Shown here piece after piece: positions 10,300 to 18,007 of a stretch of DNA of 64,000 nt. The first letter of the stretch is position 1. Each line of letters opens with the position of its first letter. A program made the position numbers and the translations under genes. The notes under the pieces are model-generated. The model did no database searches and was not told where the DNA came from. It saw only the letters and a list, made by a program, of their open reading frames with translations. This DNA comes from Rhodospirillales bacterium (GTDB lineage: Bacteria; Pseudomonadota; Alphaproteobacteria; JAJFIK01), in NCBI GenBank assembly GCA_021775005.1, contig JAJFIK010000009.1, positions 6,616 to 70,615 of the forward strand. Reading direction: 5' to 3'.

Positions 10300-10640
10300 T
10301 GTGCCCGCGACGCCTGCGCCTCCTTCCCCCTTGCGGGGGAAGGCCGGGATGGGGGGAAGTTGTGGCACGTGGAACTTCCCACGCCGTCATGTTCGGGCTA
10401 GACCCGGACATCTGGCTGCGCCCGCGTCTTGAGTAACCACTTTTGCGCAAACTTTAAGTCAGCCAGATCCCCGGGTCTCGCTAGCGCTCGCCCGAGGATG
10501 ACAATTCAAATTAGTTCGACGTCCCCCGGTTTATCCGGGGGACCCATTTTAAAGCAGCCCTGGGCACCCCGGATAAACCGGGGCGCGTCAAGAAAGGGAG
10601 GCGAAGCGCGCCTTTGCACCGCCCCCGACTCGCCGCAAAC
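10300..10640. repeat. Cluster of REP/MITE-like palindromes
   Basis: Hairpins at 10323..10344 (ccttccccc/gggggaagg) and 10354..10380. Half MITE copy at 10466..10502. 17-bp inverted repeat ccccggtttatccgggg / ccccggataaaccgggg at 10524..10583. Confidence 0.55.
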
Positions 10641-10650
10641 TAGCGGGATG

Positions 10651-11334
10651 ATTTCAACTCATATGAAACAGATTTGGCGATTTATGGAGAAGCGGTGGCT
10701 GGTGTTTTTGATCAGCGTCGTTGCCGGCGTTCTGATCGGCGCGGGTGCTGCGGACTTACCCACACTAGGCCGGGGGCAGTTTTTTGCTACATATGGCGAC
10801 TTTCTTGGCTCCGTTGTCGGCGGCCTGATCGCAGTTCTTGTTGCTTGGTGGATTGTTTCGCATGAGCGCCAGGAGATGCGGAAAGACAGAGCAAATTCAG
10901 CCGGTGATGCCGCTGCCATTCTTGCTGCGGAGATCGAGGAAGAGAAGCGGTTTATCAACAGGCGATGGGATAGCATCAAAGGCCTAATTTCTGAGTATTC
11001 GAACTACAAGACCCTTGAGGACGTGCTGCTCTCAGATCGGGAGTTCATTGCCGAACTCTTGCTTCACAGCCCCCTTAAAAATGTCGAGGTTCGCGAAGTT
11101 GCAATTGCAAATCGATGGGAAAGGAACGTTCTAAGCCGACACTTTTTTGCATTGCAGGTGTTCACTCTAATTGAACTCTATGCAGAGGTTCTTGTTGATC
11201 GACAAAGAATTCTGCTGCGGCGTATGCCGCGTGAGGATGAGCTCAAACGTATCAACGGGCACATCAAGACCTATTATGGTTTGCTAGAACTAATCGAGTT
11301 GGACCTGCAGAACCTGGCCAAGGTTGGGACCTAA
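10651..11334 (+). CDS. Hypothetical membrane-anchored protein (two N-terminal TM helices), low GC
   Basis: ORF 10429..11334. Start likely MISTHMKQIW..., because upstream codons overlap the palindrome cluster. AT-rich composition relative to neighbours. Confidence 0.45.
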   Translation: MSTHMKQIWRFMEKRWLVFLISVVAGVLIGAGAADLPTLGRGQFFATYGDFLGSVVGGLIAVLVAWWIVSHERQEMRKDRANSAGDAAAILAAEIEEEKRFINRRWDSIKGLISEYSNYKTLEDVLLSDREFIAELLLHSPLKNVEVREVAIANRWERNVLSRHFFALQVFTLIELYAEVLVDRQRILLRRMPREDELKRINGHIKTYYGLLELIELDLQNLAKVGT

Positions 11335-11558: not shown

Positions 11559-12428
11559 CTATCGCGCCAACCGCTTTGCGATGTCATCAAGTTGTTCCAG
11601 CGTGCTGTAGGACAACGTGACTTTGCCCGCCTCGCCCTTGTGGCTGATCTCAACTTTGAGGCCCAAAGCATCCATCAGGCGTTTTTCCAGCGCCCGCGTG
11701 TCGGCGTCTTTCGGTGCTGGCGTTTTACCCTTGCTCTTTGACTTAGCGCCAACATCGCCCCCGTCTTTCGCCAGCGCTTCGGCCTGACGCACAGAGAGCC
11801 CCTCGGCGATAACCTGTTTGGCAAGTTGCGCCACCTCCGGCGACATCATGATGGCGCGGGCGTGGCCGGCGGAAAGCCGTCCGTCCGCCAGCATCACCTG
11901 CACCGCTTCGGGCAACCCCAAGAGCCGAAGCGTATTGGCAATATGCGGCCGCGACTTGCCGATGTATTTCGCCAGCGCGTCTTGAGTGTAGGAAAACTCA
12001 TCCATCAGCTGGCGATAGCCCAAGGCTTCCTCGATGGCATTAAGATCAGTACGCTGAACATTTTCCACAATGGCGATTTCAAGCGCCTGGGAATCATCAA
12101 GCTCTTTCACCCGTACCGGCACGTTGTGCAGTTGCGCGCGCTGGGCGGCGCGCCAACGGCGCTCCCCGGCAATAATCTGATAACGCCCGGCAACACCGGG
12201 CTTTGGCCGCACGATGATGGGTTGGATCACGCCGCGTTCCTTCACGCTGGCGGTGAGGTCTTTCAAATCATCTTCAGAAAAAATGCGCCGGGGTTGATAG
12301 GGGTTGGGTTCCAAAAACTCCACCGGCATTTCGGTGACCTCAATCGGGCCCGCTGCAGCATCTTTCCGCGCGGGGGCGTCTTCTTCACCCATCAGGGCTG
12401 AGAGCCCGCGACCTAATCCTCTTGCCAT
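11559..12428 (-). CDS. parB: Chromosome partitioning protein ParB
   Basis: 289 aa with the GERRWRAA ParB box and HTH, adjacent to parA. Confidence 0.95.
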   Translation of the reverse strand: MARGLGRGLSALMGEEDAPARKDAAAGPIEVTEMPVEFLEPNPYQPRRIFSEDDLKDLTASVKERGVIQPIIVRPKPGVAGRYQIIAGERRWRAAQRAQLHNVPVRVKELDDSQALEIAIVENVQRTDLNAIEEALGYRQLMDEFSYTQDALAKYIGKSRPHIANTLRLLGLPEAVQVMLADGRLSAGHARAIMMSPEVAQLAKQVIAEGLSVRQAEALAKDGGDVGAKSKSKGKTPAPKDADTRALEKRLMDALGLKVEISHKGEAGKVTLSYSTLEQLDDIAKRLAR

Positions 12429-12475
12429 ATCACCGAAGCCATTGCTGGCTTTCCTTCTTGTTCGCTCGCGCGCAA

Positions 12476-13312
12476 TTACGCCGCGCGTAAATCTTTTTCC
12501 CGCTGGATGACTTCACCAGCGAGGCGGATATAGGCCTGACTGCCCGCGCATCTGAGATCATAAACCAGCGCCGGCATGCCGTGGCTGGGCGCCTCAGACA
12601 CCCGCACATTGCGCGGGATGACGGTCTTGTAGACCTTGTCGCCCATAAATTCGCGCACGTCCTTGGCCACTTGGTCAGAGAGATTGTTGCGCCGATCAAA
12701 CATGGTCAGCACGATGCCTTGTATCTCAAGCTCTGGATTGAGGGAGCCCTGCACCAGTTCTACGGTGCGAAGAAGTTGGCTCAAACCTTCCAACGCGAAA
12801 AACTCACATTGCAGCGGCACCATCACCGCGTTCGCTGCCGTCATGGCATTGATGGTGAGCAAGTTGAGCGATGGCGGGCAGTCGATCAGCACATAGGTAA
12901 ACGCCGCCGCGCTGCCCTGCGCGAATTGCTCAAACATGTCTCGGAGCCGAAATGACCGGCGTGGCGCACTGATGAGTTCCAACTCGGCTCCGGAAAGATC
13001 CACTGTGGAAGGCACAATGGAAAGGTTCGGGATCCTGGTCGGTTTCACCGCATCGGCAATGGGGGTCTCGTCCACCAGCACTTCATAGGTGGAAATCTCC
13101 CGCTCATTGCGCGGAATGCCCAGACCCGTGGAGGCGTTGCCTTGAGGGTCCATATCGATGATCAGCACCTTCTCGCCCACCGCCGCCAGCGCCGTGCCAA
13201 GGTTGATCGCCGTCGTGGTTTTACCCACCCCGCCCTTTTGATTGGCAATGGCCAGAATACGGGGCGATTTGCCCCGGCCCGGCTTTGCTTGCTCGCTTAT
13301 GTCGTCGGTCAT
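12476..13312 (-). CDS. parA: Chromosome partitioning ATPase ParA
   Basis: KGGVGKTT deviant Walker A motif, 278 aa. Confidence 0.95.
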   Translation of the reverse strand: MTDDISEQAKPGRGKSPRILAIANQKGGVGKTTTAINLGTALAAVGEKVLIIDMDPQGNASTGLGIPRNEREISTYEVLVDETPIADAVKPTRIPNLSIVPSTVDLSGAELELISAPRRSFRLRDMFEQFAQGSAAAFTYVLIDCPPSLNLLTINAMTAANAVMVPLQCEFFALEGLSQLLRTVELVQGSLNPELEIQGIVLTMFDRRNNLSDQVAKDVREFMGDKVYKTVIPRNVRVSEAPSHGMPALVYDLRCAGSQAYIRLAGEVIQREKDLRAA

Positions 13313-13337: not shown

Positions 13338-13973
13338 CTAAGCCGGGCGAAAGCCGGAAAGCTTGAGAATCTGCGCCTCTCCGGCGGTATGGCTGGGGAG
13401 GGCTTGGGCCTCAAATCTCCCCCAGGCGCGGGCGTTAGTCAATTCATCATCCGCGCTTCTGCCCTTTAGGAATAGGGCGATTCCCCCCTTACCTACAAAT
13501 GGCACCGCCAGGGGCAAAAGCTCAATGAGCGGGGCGAGGGCACGGGCTGTCACTACATCAGAGGCCCAGGGCTCAAGCACTTCCGCGCGGGCATTGTGCA
13601 CTTCAGCAGGGGCCCCGGTGGCGCGGATGGCCTCGCGCAGAAACACCGCTTTGCGGCTGTCACTCTCAATCAGATGGACTTTTAGCCCTGGACGATCGCG
13701 CCCCGAAATGGCCAGAGTGAGCCCTGGAAATCCGGCCCCACTGCCAAGGTCTGTGATCGTAGTGGCGTTCTCCGGGATCAGCGGCCAGAGCTGTGCTGAG
13801 TCCACCACATGGCGGGTCCAAACGTCTTTCAGGCTCGCTTTCGAGACCAAGTTGATTTTGGGCTGCCATTTTTCCAAAAGCGCCACATGGGCGCTGAGGG
13901 CGTCCAATGTTTCACGTGAAACAATTCCAAAAGATTTGAGCGCCTCGAGCGCTTCAGGCGGAACGGCGGACAT
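13338..13973 (-). CDS. rsmG: 16S rRNA (guanine527-N7)-methyltransferase
   Basis: GidB family, [13 protein letters not shown]-binding motif. Classic gidA-gidB-parAB order. Confidence 0.9.
13908..13923. promoter_or_regulatory. parS: parS centromere site (TGTTTCACGTGAAACA)
   Basis: Perfect 16-bp palindrome matching the canonical ParB-binding parS, inside the 5' part of rsmG. Confidence 0.85.
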
Positions 13974-15825
13974 TGCCTTTTTTCACCAAATTGAGCAGCA
14001 AAGTAAGCGCAGCCGGGGTCACCCCCTCCACGCGCGCTGCCTGGCCAAGGGTCGCCGGGCGTGCCGCGGTAAGCTTGGCACGCATTTCATTGGAGAGCCC
14101 TTTGATGGCGCCATAGTCCAGATCATCAGGCAAGCCAAGGGATTCGTCTTTGCGGAATGCTAGGATGTCTGCCTCTTGCCTATCGAGATAGCCAGCATAG
14201 GCGGCGTCGATTTCCACTTGCTCCTGCACGTCCGGGGCAAAATCCAGCAGCTCCGGCCAAACCTTTGCCAGATCAGCAAAGCCGATGGATGGATAGGCCA
14301 AGAGATCCGCCACAGTGCGACGCTGGCCATCGAGATTGACCGCCAAGCCGTGGCTACGGGCCTCGTTTGGCGTAAGATTGGCCGCTGTCACAAAGGCTCG
14401 CGCATGCGCCAATCGCTGGGCCTTTGCTTCAAAGGCCTTGCCGCGCACGGGGCCGACGCAGCCCAGATTGAGGCCCAAAGGGGTCAGGCGCTGGTCCGCA
14501 TTATCGGCCCGCAGGATGAGGCGATACTCCGCCCGGCTGGTGAACATGCGATAGGGCTCTGAAACCCCGCGGGTCACCAGATCATCGATCAGAACGCCGA
14601 TATAGGCATCGGCGCGGTCGAGCACAAATGGCTCCTCCCCGCCAAGGGCCAATGCAGCGTTGAGCCCGGCCATGAGCCCCTGGGCGGCGGCTTCCTCATA
14701 CCCGGTTGTGCCATTGATCTGCCCGGCGAGATAAAGCCCAGGCAAACGGCGGGTTTCCAGCGTGGCGCGCAGCTCGCGCGGGTCCACATAGTCATATTCA
14801 ATGGCATAGCCCGGGCGGCGGATCACAGCTTCTTCCAACCCCGGAATGGTCGCCACAAAGGCGCGCTGCACGTCTTCTGGCAATGACGTGGAAATGCCAT
14901 TGGGATAGATCGTGTCATCGTCCAGGCCTTCGGGCTCCAGGAAAATCTGATGGCTGTCGCGCCCTGAAAAGCGCACGACTTTGTCCTCAATGGAGGGGCA
15001 ATAGCGCGGGCCCACGCCGTCGATCTGGCCTGAATAGACCGGGGCTTTATCCAGATTATCGGCAATGATCTTATGGGTCGCAGCCGTGGTGTGGGTAATG
15101 TGGCAAGGCACCTGGGGCACGGTGATTTCAGGGGTCAGGAATGAGAACGGCACCGGGGGCGTATCACCAGGCTGAACCTCAAGCTGGGCCCAGTTGATGG
15201 TGCTGCCATCAAGGCGCGCCGGGGTGCCGGTTTTGAGCCGCCCCATATCAAACCCAAGGCCGTAAAGCCGCTTTGAAAGGCCTATAGCCGGGGCCTCTCC
15301 TATCCTGCCGGCAGGAATGCGCTCGGTGCCAATATGAATAAGCCCATTGAGGAAAGTGCCGGTGGTGAGCACCACAGCGCCAGCGCGGATTTCCTGCCCC
15401 GCAGCTGTTACCACCCCCACAACGCGGGAGTCCTCGATCAGAAGGTCCTCCGCCGCCGCCGCCACAATAGTCAGATTTGGCGTCCCCGCCATTTCCCCCT
15501 GCATGGCTTCGCGATAGAGCTTGCGGTCCGATTGGCAGCGGGGGCCGCGCACGGCAGGGCCTTTGCGCCGGTTGAGCATGCGGAATTGAATGCCGCTGGC
15601 GTCCGCCACCCGGCCCATGACGCCATCGAGAGCATCAATTTCCCGCACCAGGTGGCCCTTGCCCAGGCCCCCGCTGGCAGGATTGCAGGACATTTCGCCG
15701 ATGGTTTCTGGTTTGTGGGTGAGCAGCGCCGTTTTTGCCCCCAGGCGCGCCGCTGCTGCCGCAGCCTCGCAGCCGGCGTGGCCGCCGCCAATTACAATAA
15801 CATCAAAGGGGATGGGCTCGGTCAT
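13954..15825 (-). CDS. mnmG: tRNA uridine-5-carboxymethylaminomethyl modification enzyme
   Basis: 623 aa with FAD-binding [11 protein letters not shown]-terminus. Confidence 0.97.
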
Positions 15826-15863
15826 GCCGGGCTATGTAGCGCGGGGGGCCGCCAACGCCAAGA

Positions 15864-15879
15864 TGTTTCACGTGAAACA
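15864..15879. promoter_or_regulatory. parS: parS centromere site (TGTTTCACGTGAAACA)
   Basis: Second perfect 16-bp parS palindrome, 39 bp upstream of the mnmG start. Confidence 0.85.
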
Positions 15880-15886
15880 CTGGCTA

Positions 15887-16555
15887 CTATGGCTGCGGTT
15901 TGGTACCTATCACTTGAGGCACATCTGAAAGCTCCCGACAGTACCATTCGGTATCCGCGCATATCCACCCTATTAATCCCAACAGCCTGTCATGTTCTCG
16001 GGTCGGTGATTTATCAATAATACAATAGTGGTGCGCGATCTTGTTGCGGAACAGTCGAAATCCTTCTGCTCGTTTCATTATCGTATCCAGAGTGGTACGC
16101 GCCGGAACATATGGGAAAGATCGACTGGTCCCGACCGCCCACAGGTGTGAGCTATATCTTGCGGTCAACATACTACACCAAAAATTGAGTGGAAGTGCGG
16201 CTAAGACCTGATCTGTCGTTGGTGTGCTTCTTCGCGCCTTTTGCTCCCTCTCTATTATTTGCTCTAGCTTTATCCGATGGTGCTCCACCAGAATTCCGTG
16301 AAAGCCCGTCTCCCAAGGCCATCTATCGCCAAATCTACGATAGATTGGCTTTGCAATGGTGTTTCGCAGGGATACTTCTCCAATATGTATTGGAAGGTTA
16401 AATGCTTGAGATAACTGAATGTTCCAAGCGTACAAGCGGATGGCGTATTGATCATCACCTTTTGCTAGGCCCAGATATCTTGAGAATCGCCCACTCGACA
16501 TTGTTGACCTAATTGTCGCCAATGTGCTGGGCGTTAGAGAGAATTCGTATTGCAT
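15887..16555 (-). CDS. Abi_2-family (AbiD/AbiF-like) abortive-infection protein, low GC
   Basis: N-terminal ...YAIRLYAW... and C-terminal ...RLFRNKIAHHYCII... match Abi_2 hallmark blocks. AT-rich codon usage. Inserted between mnmG and mnmE. Confidence 0.6.
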   Translation of the reverse strand: MQYEFSLTPSTLATIRSTMSSGRFSRYLGLAKGDDQYAIRLYAWNIQLSQAFNLPIHIGEVSLRNTIAKPIYRRFGDRWPWETGFHGILVEHHRIKLEQIIEREQKARRSTPTTDQVLAALPLNFWCSMLTARYSSHLWAVGTSRSFPYVPARTTLDTIMKRAEGFRLFRNKIAHHYCIIDKSPTREHDRLLGLIGWICADTEWYCRELSDVPQVIGTKPQP

Positions 16556-16696
16556 ATTTTACTTTTTCAGACTATATCTAGCTCACGAGCTGCAGAAGGA
16601 TCACTGGAAACATATCCCTGCAGACAAAGATCGAGGCCGGGCCGAAAGGTGCCGGTCTCAACCTTATGTAGTCCTTGATAGCGCCTACATCTACCA

Positions 16697-18007
16697 CTAT
16701 TTCCCAATGCAGAACTCAGCGAAAACCACATCCAGCAGGTCTTCCACGTCCACCTTGCCCATAAGGCGCTCCAAAGCGCGGGCGGCCAGGCGCAGATCTT
16801 CCCCGCATAACTCAGCTTCCTGGGCCATTTCAGCCCGTGTCAGCGCCCCGATGGCGTCTTCCAGGGCGCGGATATGGCGCGCGCGGGTGAGGGTCGGGGC
16901 CTCGGTAATGCCAGCGCGGGCCACCACTTCGTCCCGCAGACGGGCCTCCAGAGTGTCCAGCCCTTCACCGGTTTTGACGCTGACGCGGAGGAAATCAGGG
17001 GTATCGGTGCTCAGATCCGCCTTGCTGATGAGCACTATATCGCCCTCGCGCACCTGGGCTTTGGCTTGGGGGTCTGGCGGCAAGGTGGCATCAAACAGCA
17101 CCAATCTTAGGTCCGCCCGCTGGGCCCGCGCCAGGGCGCGTTTGATCCCCTCACTCTCAATCTCATCGGAAGCATCCCGTAGCCCGGCGGTGTCGGCGAG
17201 GGTCACCGGGTAGCCGCCAAGGTCCATTTGCACCTCAACCACGTCCCTGGTGGTGCCTGCCGTGGCCGAGACAATGGCCGCCTCTCTGCCCGCTAAGGCA
17301 TTGAGTATGCTTGACTTTCCCGCGTTCGGCGCACCCAGGATGGCAACCTCCAGCCCCTCGCGCAGGCGCACGCCCTTTTGCCCGCACACAAGTTCCGCTT
17401 CCAGCTCGTTTGCCAAATCTTTGATCCCCGGCCGGGCCTTGCCCAAAAGACCGCCGGGGACGCCATCTTCATCGGGAAAGTCGATATCCGCGGCCACCAA
17501 GGCGGCCAGCTTGATGATCTGCCTGCGCCACAAGGCGACCCGCCCGGCGAGCGCGCCTTCCATCTGGCGCAGGGCCTGGCGGCGCTGGGCTTCGGTTTCA
17601 GCGTCGATAAGGTCGGCAAGGCCCTCAACGGCGGTAAGATCCATCTTGCCCGCCTCAAAGGCGCGGCGGGTAAACTCGCCAGGCTCCGCAGGGCGCAAGT
17701 CATCAAAAGTCCCAAGCGCATCCAGAACCGCCGCAATGACCGCGCGGCCGCCATGAATGTGAAGCTCCGCCACATCCTCGCCGGTAAAGCTTGCCGGGGC
17801 GGGAAACCACAAAGAAAGCGCCCGGTCCAGCGGTGCATTGGTCTTGGGATGCGCCAGCTCACAAAGGCTTGCCGCGCGCGGCTTTGGCAATGATTTGCCC
17901 GAAAGCGCAGCTAATGCCGGCCCCGCGCCTGGCCCTGAGAGGCGGATCACCGCCACCCCTGCCCGGCCCGCAGCAGAGGAAAGCGCATAGATGGTGCCCG
18001 TACTCAC
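16697..18007 (-). CDS. mnmE: tRNA modification GTPase
   Basis: 436 aa with G-domain GAPNAGKSS and C-terminal CIGK. Confidence 0.95.
   Translation of the reverse strand: MSTGTIYALSSAAGRAGVAVIRLSGPGAGPALAALSGKSLPKPRAASLCELAHPKTNAPLDRALSLWFPAPASFTGEDVAELHIHGGRAVIAAVLDALGTFDDLRPAEPGEFTRRAFEAGKMDLTAVEGLADLIDAETEAQRRQALRQMEGALAGRVALWRRQIIKLAALVAADIDFPDEDGVPGGLLGKARPGIKDLANELEAELVCGQKGVRLREGLEVAILGAPNAGKSSILNALAGREAAIVSATAGTTRDVVEVQMDLGGYPVTLADTAGLRDASDEIESEGIKRALARAQRADLRLVLFDATLPPDPQAKAQVREGDIVLISKADLSTDTPDFLRVSVKTGEGLDTLEARLRDEVVARAGITEAPTLTRARHIRALEDAIGALTRAEMAQEAELCGEDLRLAARALERLMGKVDVEDLLDVVFAEFCIGK

Follow-up and report, generated by a model that had tools for sequence, protein, structure and literature searches.

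The spacer between mnmE and mnmG in a stretch of DNA from a Rhodospirillales bacterium (64,000 nucleotides (nt) of contig JAJFIK010000009.1, referred to here as the window) harbours a foreign module made up of two genes: an open reading frame (ORF) for a predicted HEPN ribonuclease (RNase) of 222 amino acids (aa) and, on the other strand within the 141-nt leader of this ORF, a candidate gene for a small structured RNA. The reading that we favour, with moderate confidence, is that of a mobile module in which an RNA antitoxin accompanies a HEPN toxin, as a variant of the AbiF-type type III toxin-antitoxin systems. The analysis established both genes and their strict co-occurrence, the structure and strand of the RNA, the interlock of its predicted promoter with the start codon of the ORF and the foreign origin of the module. 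A sequence-only reading of the same DNA had drawn attention to the ORF as an Abi_2-type abortive-infection gene inserted together with a parS site; the opposite-strand structured RNA gene is a component that it missed.

In the proposed explanation, a compact mobile module of ~784 bp (15887-16670) would have entered the ancestral spacer between mnmE and mnmG, then ~87 nt long, immediately upstream of a resident parS. The first gene of the module would specify a minimal HEPN ribonuclease, with PD-T4-5, an abortive-infection gene active against T4, as its nearest characterised relative, and the second a divergent structured RNA of ~85-90 nt with a promoter overlapping the toxin start codon. By analogy with AbiF and its RNA AbiFr, or RCd22, the RNA would neutralise the toxin in uninfected cells. 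The likeliest route would be binding of the HEPN dimer by conserved unpaired nucleotides of the RNA, as in type III toxin-antitoxin systems, with antisense pairing or promoter competition possibly contributing. Phage infection or loss of the module would free the RNase and growth would stop. Termination of mnmE transcription at hairpin H1 of the RNA gene would, in addition, shield the toxin from read-through.

The HEPN protein

The protein carries the LFRNKIAHHYCII motif that the sequence-only reading had singled out. This is a catalytic R170-N171-x3-H175 arrangement (R170-N171-K-I-A-H175), which fits the HEPN consensus R-[NHD]-x3-H and is accompanied by an N-terminal E60-x3-R64-N65. An exhaustive phmmer search for homologues returned 2920 cluster representatives, 1163 of them at E<=1e-10 and the best 33-41% identical; a word-indexed search recovered three proteins only. 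Eight residues (E60, R64, N65, W79, F125, W126, R170 and H175) do not vary across 69 aligned members, and conservation of N171 is 90% or higher. The PADLOC hidden Markov model (HMM) for PD-T4-5 (PDLC04038) matched the window protein with E 7.2e-8 and 30 bits over positions 13-212 of 309, its C-terminal third remaining uncovered. The same model is the best-scoring defence HMM for the homologues, matching 69/69 (best 8e-19), with AbiD matching 49/69. Among Pfam families, Abi_2 was found in 60 of the 69 (E<=0.01, best 4.4e-9), HEPN_Swt1 in 12 and HEPN_RiboL-PSP in 8, and searches of NCBIfam and PHROGs with the window protein gave no match.

An all-helical AlphaFold2 model (predicted local distance difference test 96.6, predicted template-modelling score 0.90) has a sole meaningful match in the PDB by Foldseek: 8vz6_A, the PbAbiF dimer with its non-coding RNA (ncRNA), with probability 1.00 and a template-modelling score of 0.59. 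By this transitive route through homologues, the PD-T4-5 HMM and the modelled fold, the ORF is placed in the AbiD/AbiF (Abi_2) HEPN superfamily; to that extent the AbiD/AbiF-like identity claimed for it earlier stands, the part concerning a direct Pfam match being taken up below. From the analogy with characterised relatives we infer that the protein is a toxic RNase.

The earlier suggestion of a truncated variant was not upheld. Since most of the best phmmer matches are ~220 aa long and align from residue 1 to 221, a length of 222 aa is, by sequence comparison, full length for the subfamily. The public gene call (P0001) starts at Met19 and yields 204 aa, 18 codons late with respect to the ATG at 16555; the upstream ATG, which gives 222 aa, is backed by the family alignment with its conserved N-terminus MQYxFS. 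Only one other public copy of the protein was found, identical in sequence and lying on a short read-assembly contig with the same neighbours.

A candidate structured RNA gene on the opposite strand

The literature on AbiF ncRNAs prompted a search for an RNA partner. No Rfam family, the abiF motif RF03085 included, was detected on either strand in 15600-17000 (E<=10) or in 15 homologue loci (E<=0.1). The 130 nt upstream of the ORF are conserved among homologue loci in unrelated genomic contexts, and mean pairwise nucleotide identity is 0.62 for the upstream RNA block versus 0.49 for the ORFs. Read on the ORF strand, the block consists of an A-tract, H1, CTTGTCC, H2 (GAGATTTGC and GCAGTGATC around an inner stem), a TA-rich stretch and the ATG; CAGTGATC keeps a constant position, -51 to -54 relative to the ATG. 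Read on the opposite strand, it is a predicted RNA with a three-part hairpin, H2, at its 5' end, followed by the GC-rich terminator hairpin H1. H2 is built of an outer stem CUGCAG/CUGCAG, a middle stem GAU/AUC, conserved unpaired CAC and A, and an inner stem that varies in length and sequence yet stays complementary.

Four independent features place the candidate RNA on the strand opposite the ORF: consensus folding energy, the asymmetry of G.U pairs, the loops of H1 with the T-tract that follows, and the promoter described below. RNAalifold gave -19.5 kcal/mol with a covariation term of -2.8 for the opposite strand versus -14.7 and -0.9 for the ORF strand; on the trimmed alignment A7, the opposite strand reached -31.7 with a covariation term of -3.85. 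The helices of the opposite strand contain 34 G.U cells against 1 A.C cell, or 23 against 1 when the loop-closing U.G is left aside; read on the ORF strand, the G.U cells would turn into mismatches. On the strand opposite the ORF, the H1 loop of the window is GAAA and that of most loci UUCG, UACG or UGCG; loops of the UNCG and GNRA types occur on this strand only, and it is here that a T-tract follows H1 in most homologues. H1 is probably a bidirectional terminator, which would also end mnmE transcription.

Covariation was assessed over 24 pairs in 14 sequences, with 500 shuffles and slid controls. Paired cells amount to 95.8% versus 85.6% in shuffles, compensatory changes affect 14 of the 24 pairs versus 5.8 in shuffles, none of the 500 shuffles reaches any observed measure, and pairing in the slid controls never exceeds 48%. 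Owing to their common descent, the loci are less independent than these shuffle statistics imply. Folded by itself, the window copy adopts the consensus shape (-31.6 kcal/mol, z -3.62; other strand z -1.9). Unpaired GAUCACUG and AAAUC, as well as helices with compensatory changes, are kept across loci whose proteins are 33-40% identical. As unpaired bases are conserved and helices covary, recognition of a folded RNA is suggested. The RNA defines a family absent from Rfam.

Two other readings of the leader were considered and set aside. Against a sense-strand ncRNA like RCd22, that strand shows A.C mismatches repeatedly, folds with a less favourable consensus energy and places the terminator-like hairpin ahead of the structured part. 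A small protein is not favoured either: inspection of the alignments by eye revealed no ORF common to the loci, and differences in loop length are not multiples of three.

A predicted promoter interlocked with the start codon of the ORF

The predicted sigma-70-type promoter of the small RNA reaches into the ORF: its -35 element, TTGCAT, is the reverse complement of codons 1-2 (ATG CAA), and the RNA is predicted to start near 16585. TTGCAT is exact in 14 of 18 loci, where it is followed by a spacer of 17-18 nt and TAnnnT. Promoter-like matches cluster at -17 to -23 from the ATG on the RNA strand, with nearly none on the ORF strand. Modest support comes from codon usage, as codon 2 is CAA in all 14 cases in which it encodes Gln, versus 62% CAA elsewhere in the ORFs. 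A promoter scan of 15700-16900 called none; its rule demands T at position 6 of the -10 element, and the window has TATATC.

Co-occurrence, mobility and decay

A covariance model, R1, was built from the alignment of homologue RNAs and searched in the window, in the homologue loci and in control loci. The window contains a single copy (68.6 bits, E 1e-15; Table 1), and a match in the same place and on the same strand lies beside every close homologue with enough upstream sequence. R1 also matches seven loci outside its training set (L095, L096, L134, L102, L154, L158 and L159; 46-83 bits). The 845 kb of control loci contained no real matches, and R1 does not hit family members at a greater distance (L103-L153). 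Weak, tentative matches in the position and orientation expected of the RNA come from an Agrobacterium pTi plasmid (20 bits) and from Zymomonas pZM36 (18 bits).

Each of the four closest homologues examined stands alone at a different housekeeping locus; they have no common neighbour and no integrase nearby, and in three of the four GC is clearly below that of the flanks. The family occurs on 345 plasmid records, commonly beside partition genes. At two loci, L108 (2501-3166) and L154 (2501-3169), the ORF is frameshifted ~10-15 codons before RNxxxH and the RNA gene beside it is intact (82.9 and 49.3 bits). These frameshifts could reflect real decay of the toxin or assembly error; loss of the ORF with an intact RNA is the form of decay expected if the protein is toxic. 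One frameshifted copy is on a metagenome contig also listed by IMG/VR as viral and the other on the Tistrella mobilis plasmid pTM3.

Two side observations concern other loci of the family. On an IMG/VR contig (L158; 4674-8551) 5 nt separate the end of the module from a convergent gene for the large terminase subunit, beyond which lie terminase small-subunit and head-tail adaptor genes; judged by these genes, the context is that of a prophage, a phage or a gene-transfer agent. Two distant members, L133 and L144, have a different conserved hairpin, AAAAAAGAAACCCCGGCTCCT...GGAGGACCGGGGCTGAC, ~100 nt upstream of the ORF, and other subfamilies may thus have RNA partners of their own.

The insertion site and its resident parS

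The surrounding gene cluster, on the minus strand, comprises parB, parA, rsmG, mnmG and mnmE, with parA and parB at 11559-13312 (Table 1). The mnmE-mnmG spacer (15826-16696, 871 bp) has a GC content of 0.477 and a third-position GC content (GC3) of 0.47, versus 0.62/0.65 and 0.69/0.72 in the flanking genes; it contains no other intact ORF. For comparison, 80 mnmG loci were fetched from species-representative genomes, and in 74 of them mnmE lies upstream of mnmG; the closest relative by MnmG (76% identity) is a Rhizomicrobium metagenome-assembled genome. These 74 alphaproteobacterial loci have a median spacer of 73.5 nt, with just 8 spacers longer than 400 nt. No relative of the ORF is present in any of the 74, nor in the full set of 80 mnmG loci. 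The sequence-only reading was thus right about the usual adjacency of the two genes, the ~870-bp AT-rich spacer and the foreign nature of the gene. Low GC and GC3, absence from the 74 relatives and the occurrence of homologues at scattered loci, on plasmids and beside phage genes indicate, at the level of sequence, that the module is a foreign insertion and not a conserved core gene.

The window contains two perfect copies of parS, TGTTTCACGTGAAACA, versus 0.01 matches expected from shuffles. One of them sits, as had been noted before, between the ORF and mnmG, in the 61 bp separating the two, 7 nt from the ORF stop codon. The claim that this site was inserted along with the gene did not survive comparison with relatives. 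Among the Caulobacterales, Hyphomicrobiales and Rhizomicrobium relatives, most have a parS (with up to 2 mismatches, often perfect) in the short stretch between mnmE and mnmG; excision of 15887-16670 leaves a spacer of ~87 nt including parS, as in relatives; and the window sequence from parS onward is similar to that of one of them (L006). Because relatives without the ORF have parS in a short spacer and removal of the module restores a typical one, the site is a resident, ancestral feature of the spacer and not part of the insert. A search for repeats in 15700-16900 revealed no convincing direct or inverted repeats flanking the insert as insertion scars. A parS-like run of 13 nt at 16601-16613, considered as a decayed second parS or a target duplication, proved to be the conserved H2 loop region of the RNA.

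The spacer was also considered as a general hotspot for defence genes and this idea was rejected: the eight relatives with long spacers hold unrelated or no obvious genes. Their enlarged spacers (437-2288 nt; L007, L013, L017, L023, L026, L032, L058 and L073) contain putative secreted or outer-membrane proteins or no clear ORF. One, from a Pelagibacteraceae genome, has a 579-aa repeat protein as cargo, and L032 has 4 parS-like sites within 1.2 kb. As for the rest of the cluster, the second perfect parS of the window is not intergenic: it lies within the rsmG coding sequence (13338-13973, minus), near the 5' end. A 301-aa ORF adjoining parB (10429-11334, plus) has a second half resembling a membrane-anchored protein (MEKRWLVFLISVVAGVLIGAGAADL...) and a long N-terminal extension that resembles an over-called start.

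Table 1. Features of the module and its surroundings (positions in the window)
Feature	Position	Strand	Basis or detail
222-aa HEPN protein, AbiD/AbiF (Abi_2) superfamily, PD-T4-5-like minimal subfamily, predicted RNase toxin	15887-16555	minus	ORF, HMMs, homologues, structural model
Candidate small RNA gene, ~85-90 nt, antisense and divergent to the ORF	16582-16670	plus	covariance model R1
H2 compound hairpin	16590-16623	plus	alignments A6 and A7, pair tables; same shape in the minimum-free-energy fold of the window copy
H1 GC-rich hairpin with GAAA loop, terminator	16633-16659	plus	12-pair helix, 7 covarying pairs
Predicted sigma-70-type promoter of the small RNA	16550-16578	plus	-35 TTGCAT 16550-16555, 17-nt spacer, -10 TATATC 16573-16578
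parS, 16-bp ParB-binding palindrome	15864-15879		exact match
Second perfect parS	13908-13923		exact match
mnmG	13954-15825	minus	TIGR00136, 834 bits; downstream neighbour of the ORF, same strand
mnmE	16697-18007	minus	NF003661, 565 bits; upstream neighbour of the ORF, same strand

Relation to known systems

AbiD/F proteins are HEPN RNases (PMC3710099), and AbiF systems are type III toxin-antitoxin systems in which a HEPN toxin is coupled with an ncRNA antitoxin: the upstream ncRNA of the sense strand, AbiFr/RCd22 (RF03085), blocks the HEPN site by binding to it (PMC12373285, PMC12737573, PMC13064643). In lactococcal AbiD/F, upstream regions are likewise more conserved than the ORF (PMC13064643). 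The window module resembles AbiF, AbiD and AbiD1 in its single HEPN RNase with an R-N-x3-H motif and a modelled PbAbiF-like fold, in a small structured RNA gene directly upstream of the toxin start that is more conserved than the protein gene, and in being found both as single copies dispersed over chromosomes and on plasmids and prophage-like contigs. In contrast, the protein is ~80-100 aa shorter and falls below the Pfam threshold. The RNA differs from that of AbiF in its strand, which is the opposite one, in its transcription, which leads away from the toxin and starts at a separate promoter overlapping the start codon, and in its layout of one compound hairpin plus terminator in place of two abiF motifs before a terminator. 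It has no match to RF03085 on either strand.

PD-T4-5 was described as a plasmid-borne single gene in Escherichia coli, 'a distant relative of AbiF/D', that confers abortive-infection defence against T4 (Vassallo et al. 2022, PMC9519451). It is the top defence HMM for the window protein and all 69 homologues, and a single-gene abortive-infection system; it differs in the part of the model that is covered (only positions 13-212), in its plasmid-borne setting in E. coli and in that no RNA partner is reported for it in the cited literature.

The feature that characterises type III systems, an ncRNA gene adjoining an endoribonuclease toxin gene, is found here as the R1 match beside the ORF for a predicted RNase. 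ToxIN, AbiQ, CptIN and TenpIN likewise couple an endoribonuclease toxin with an adjacent ncRNA that curbs it, with a terminator setting the balance, and are abortive-infection systems. Their antitoxins, however, are tandem repeat arrays on the same strand that are processed by the toxin, in contrast to the single opposite-strand unit of the window, and their toxins have the ToxN/AbiQ fold, not HEPN. A search for a repeat family in 15700-16900 returned only short two-copy matches, likely due to chance, and no tandem array of the type III kind. SymE/SymR-like type I systems share a small RNA opposite the 5' region of the toxin and interlocked promoters; the differences are that the toxin here is a 222-aa HEPN enzyme and that RNA structure and unpaired bases are conserved over distant loci, which cis-antisense action does not need.

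Weighing the explanations

Besides the relatedness of the loci behind the covariation statistics, several observations weigh against a toxin/antitoxin module of AbiF type. The check proposed for the Abi_2 identity, a significant direct match to PF07751, failed: the window protein scores 15.3 bits (E 0.026; profile positions 32-183 of 184), short of the gathering score of 25.6 bits. The Foldseek E-value to 8vz6 is just 0.058, and sequence profiles of the family do not reach PbAbiF. The RNA is predicted, as are its ends and its promoter; the window -10 box ends in C, the T-tract of the window after H1 is weak (CCUUAUGU), and no recognisable toxin promoter on the ORF strand emerged from the promoter scan of the loci. 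Anti-phage activity would follow from a relative, PD-T4-5, detected by HMM only. Finally, as the RNA is unlike RF03085 and on the strand opposite to all characterised AbiF ncRNAs, the mechanistic analogy is one that lacks RNA homology.

The upstream block could be read in two other ways. In the chief rival to protein binding, it might encode a real RNA acting in cis, either as an antisense to the 5' leader of the toxin in type I-like fashion or through a promoter that overlaps the start codon and -10 region of the toxin and competes with its transcription. The geometry suits this account: the RNA lies wholly inside the upstream leader and its promoter overlaps codons 1-2 of the ORF; there is no room for a sense-strand promoter in the 29 nt from the predicted RNA start to the ATG, so that the toxin mRNA must overlap the RNA gene; and transcripts reading through from mnmE, which lies upstream of the ORF in the same orientation, would carry the complement of the RNA. 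Pure cis-antisense, however, needs neither conserved sequence nor structure, the conserved unpaired bases and covarying helices suggest that a folded RNA is recognised, and type I toxins are small membrane peptides, unlike a HEPN enzyme of 222 aa; action purely in cis is improbable, if still deserving of weight. Alternatively, no functional RNA would exist and the block would be a DNA signal, a bidirectional terminator insulating a toxic gene joined to a palindromic operator or promoter for the ORF. H1 does have an A-tract on one side and a T-tract on the other, as a bidirectional terminator would, and the fixed position of CAGTGATC is as expected for a promoter element or operator. Yet a palindrome would lack the strand asymmetry of 34 G.U versus 1 A.C, the inner stem remains complementary despite changes in length and sequence, the RNA-specific UNCG/GNRA tetraloops are confined to one strand, and a sigma-70-like promoter is placed to transcribe exactly the conserved block. 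We regard this second account as very unlikely.

Other alternatives concern the module as a whole. It may be selfish, an addiction cassette of toxin and antitoxin, or else a remnant in decay, without a phage-defence role in its host: close homologues are lone genes among housekeeping genes and outside defence islands, the toxin is frameshifted in two copies, and the family is common on plasmids beside partition genes. In the window, on the other hand, ORF and RNA gene are intact and all catalytic residues are present; PD-T4-5, AbiD, AbiD1 and AbiF are all anti-phage (PMC9519451, PMC13064643); and addiction and defence are not mutually exclusive. Absence of a defence role is therefore rather unlikely, while being an alternative to be reckoned with. 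As to a truncated Abi_2 gene that arrived together with parS, the match to positions 13-212 of the 309 in the PD-T4-5 HMM does mean a protein shorter than classical AbiD/F, but ~220 aa is standard in a large subfamily that aligns end to end, and relatives without the gene have parS at the same site, which makes this origin scarcely credible.

Implications

Taken alone, an Abi_2-type gene would add one more ordinary member to a known family; the RNA partner on the opposite strand makes it a variant of the AbiF-type RNA-toxin system. The ~220-aa PD-T4-5-like group numbers thousands of sequence clusters and is frequent on plasmids. Tentatively, and at less than even confidence, these proteins might constitute a distinct class of RNA-protein toxin-antitoxin systems, in which a divergent small RNA, unrelated to the abiF motif and interlocked with the start codon, is a protein-binding antitoxin. 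AbiF-type HEPN toxins and their ncRNAs have recently been proposed as Cas13 ancestors (summarised in PMC12737573 and PMC12373285), and the RNA would then be a second, independently evolved partner of this fold. If true, a sister subfamily pairs the same fold with a different RNA on the other strand, and RNA control of HEPN toxins would have evolved repeatedly or be more flexible; the compact two-part system of ~0.8 kb would also be easy to test. The findings correct two annotation habits, namely calls of 'hypothetical' or 'Abi family protein' without the partner and a start placed 18 codons late. For the host genome, they mean that a potentially lethal RNase and a terminator now lie between mnmE and mnmG, beside the centromere site of the chromosome.

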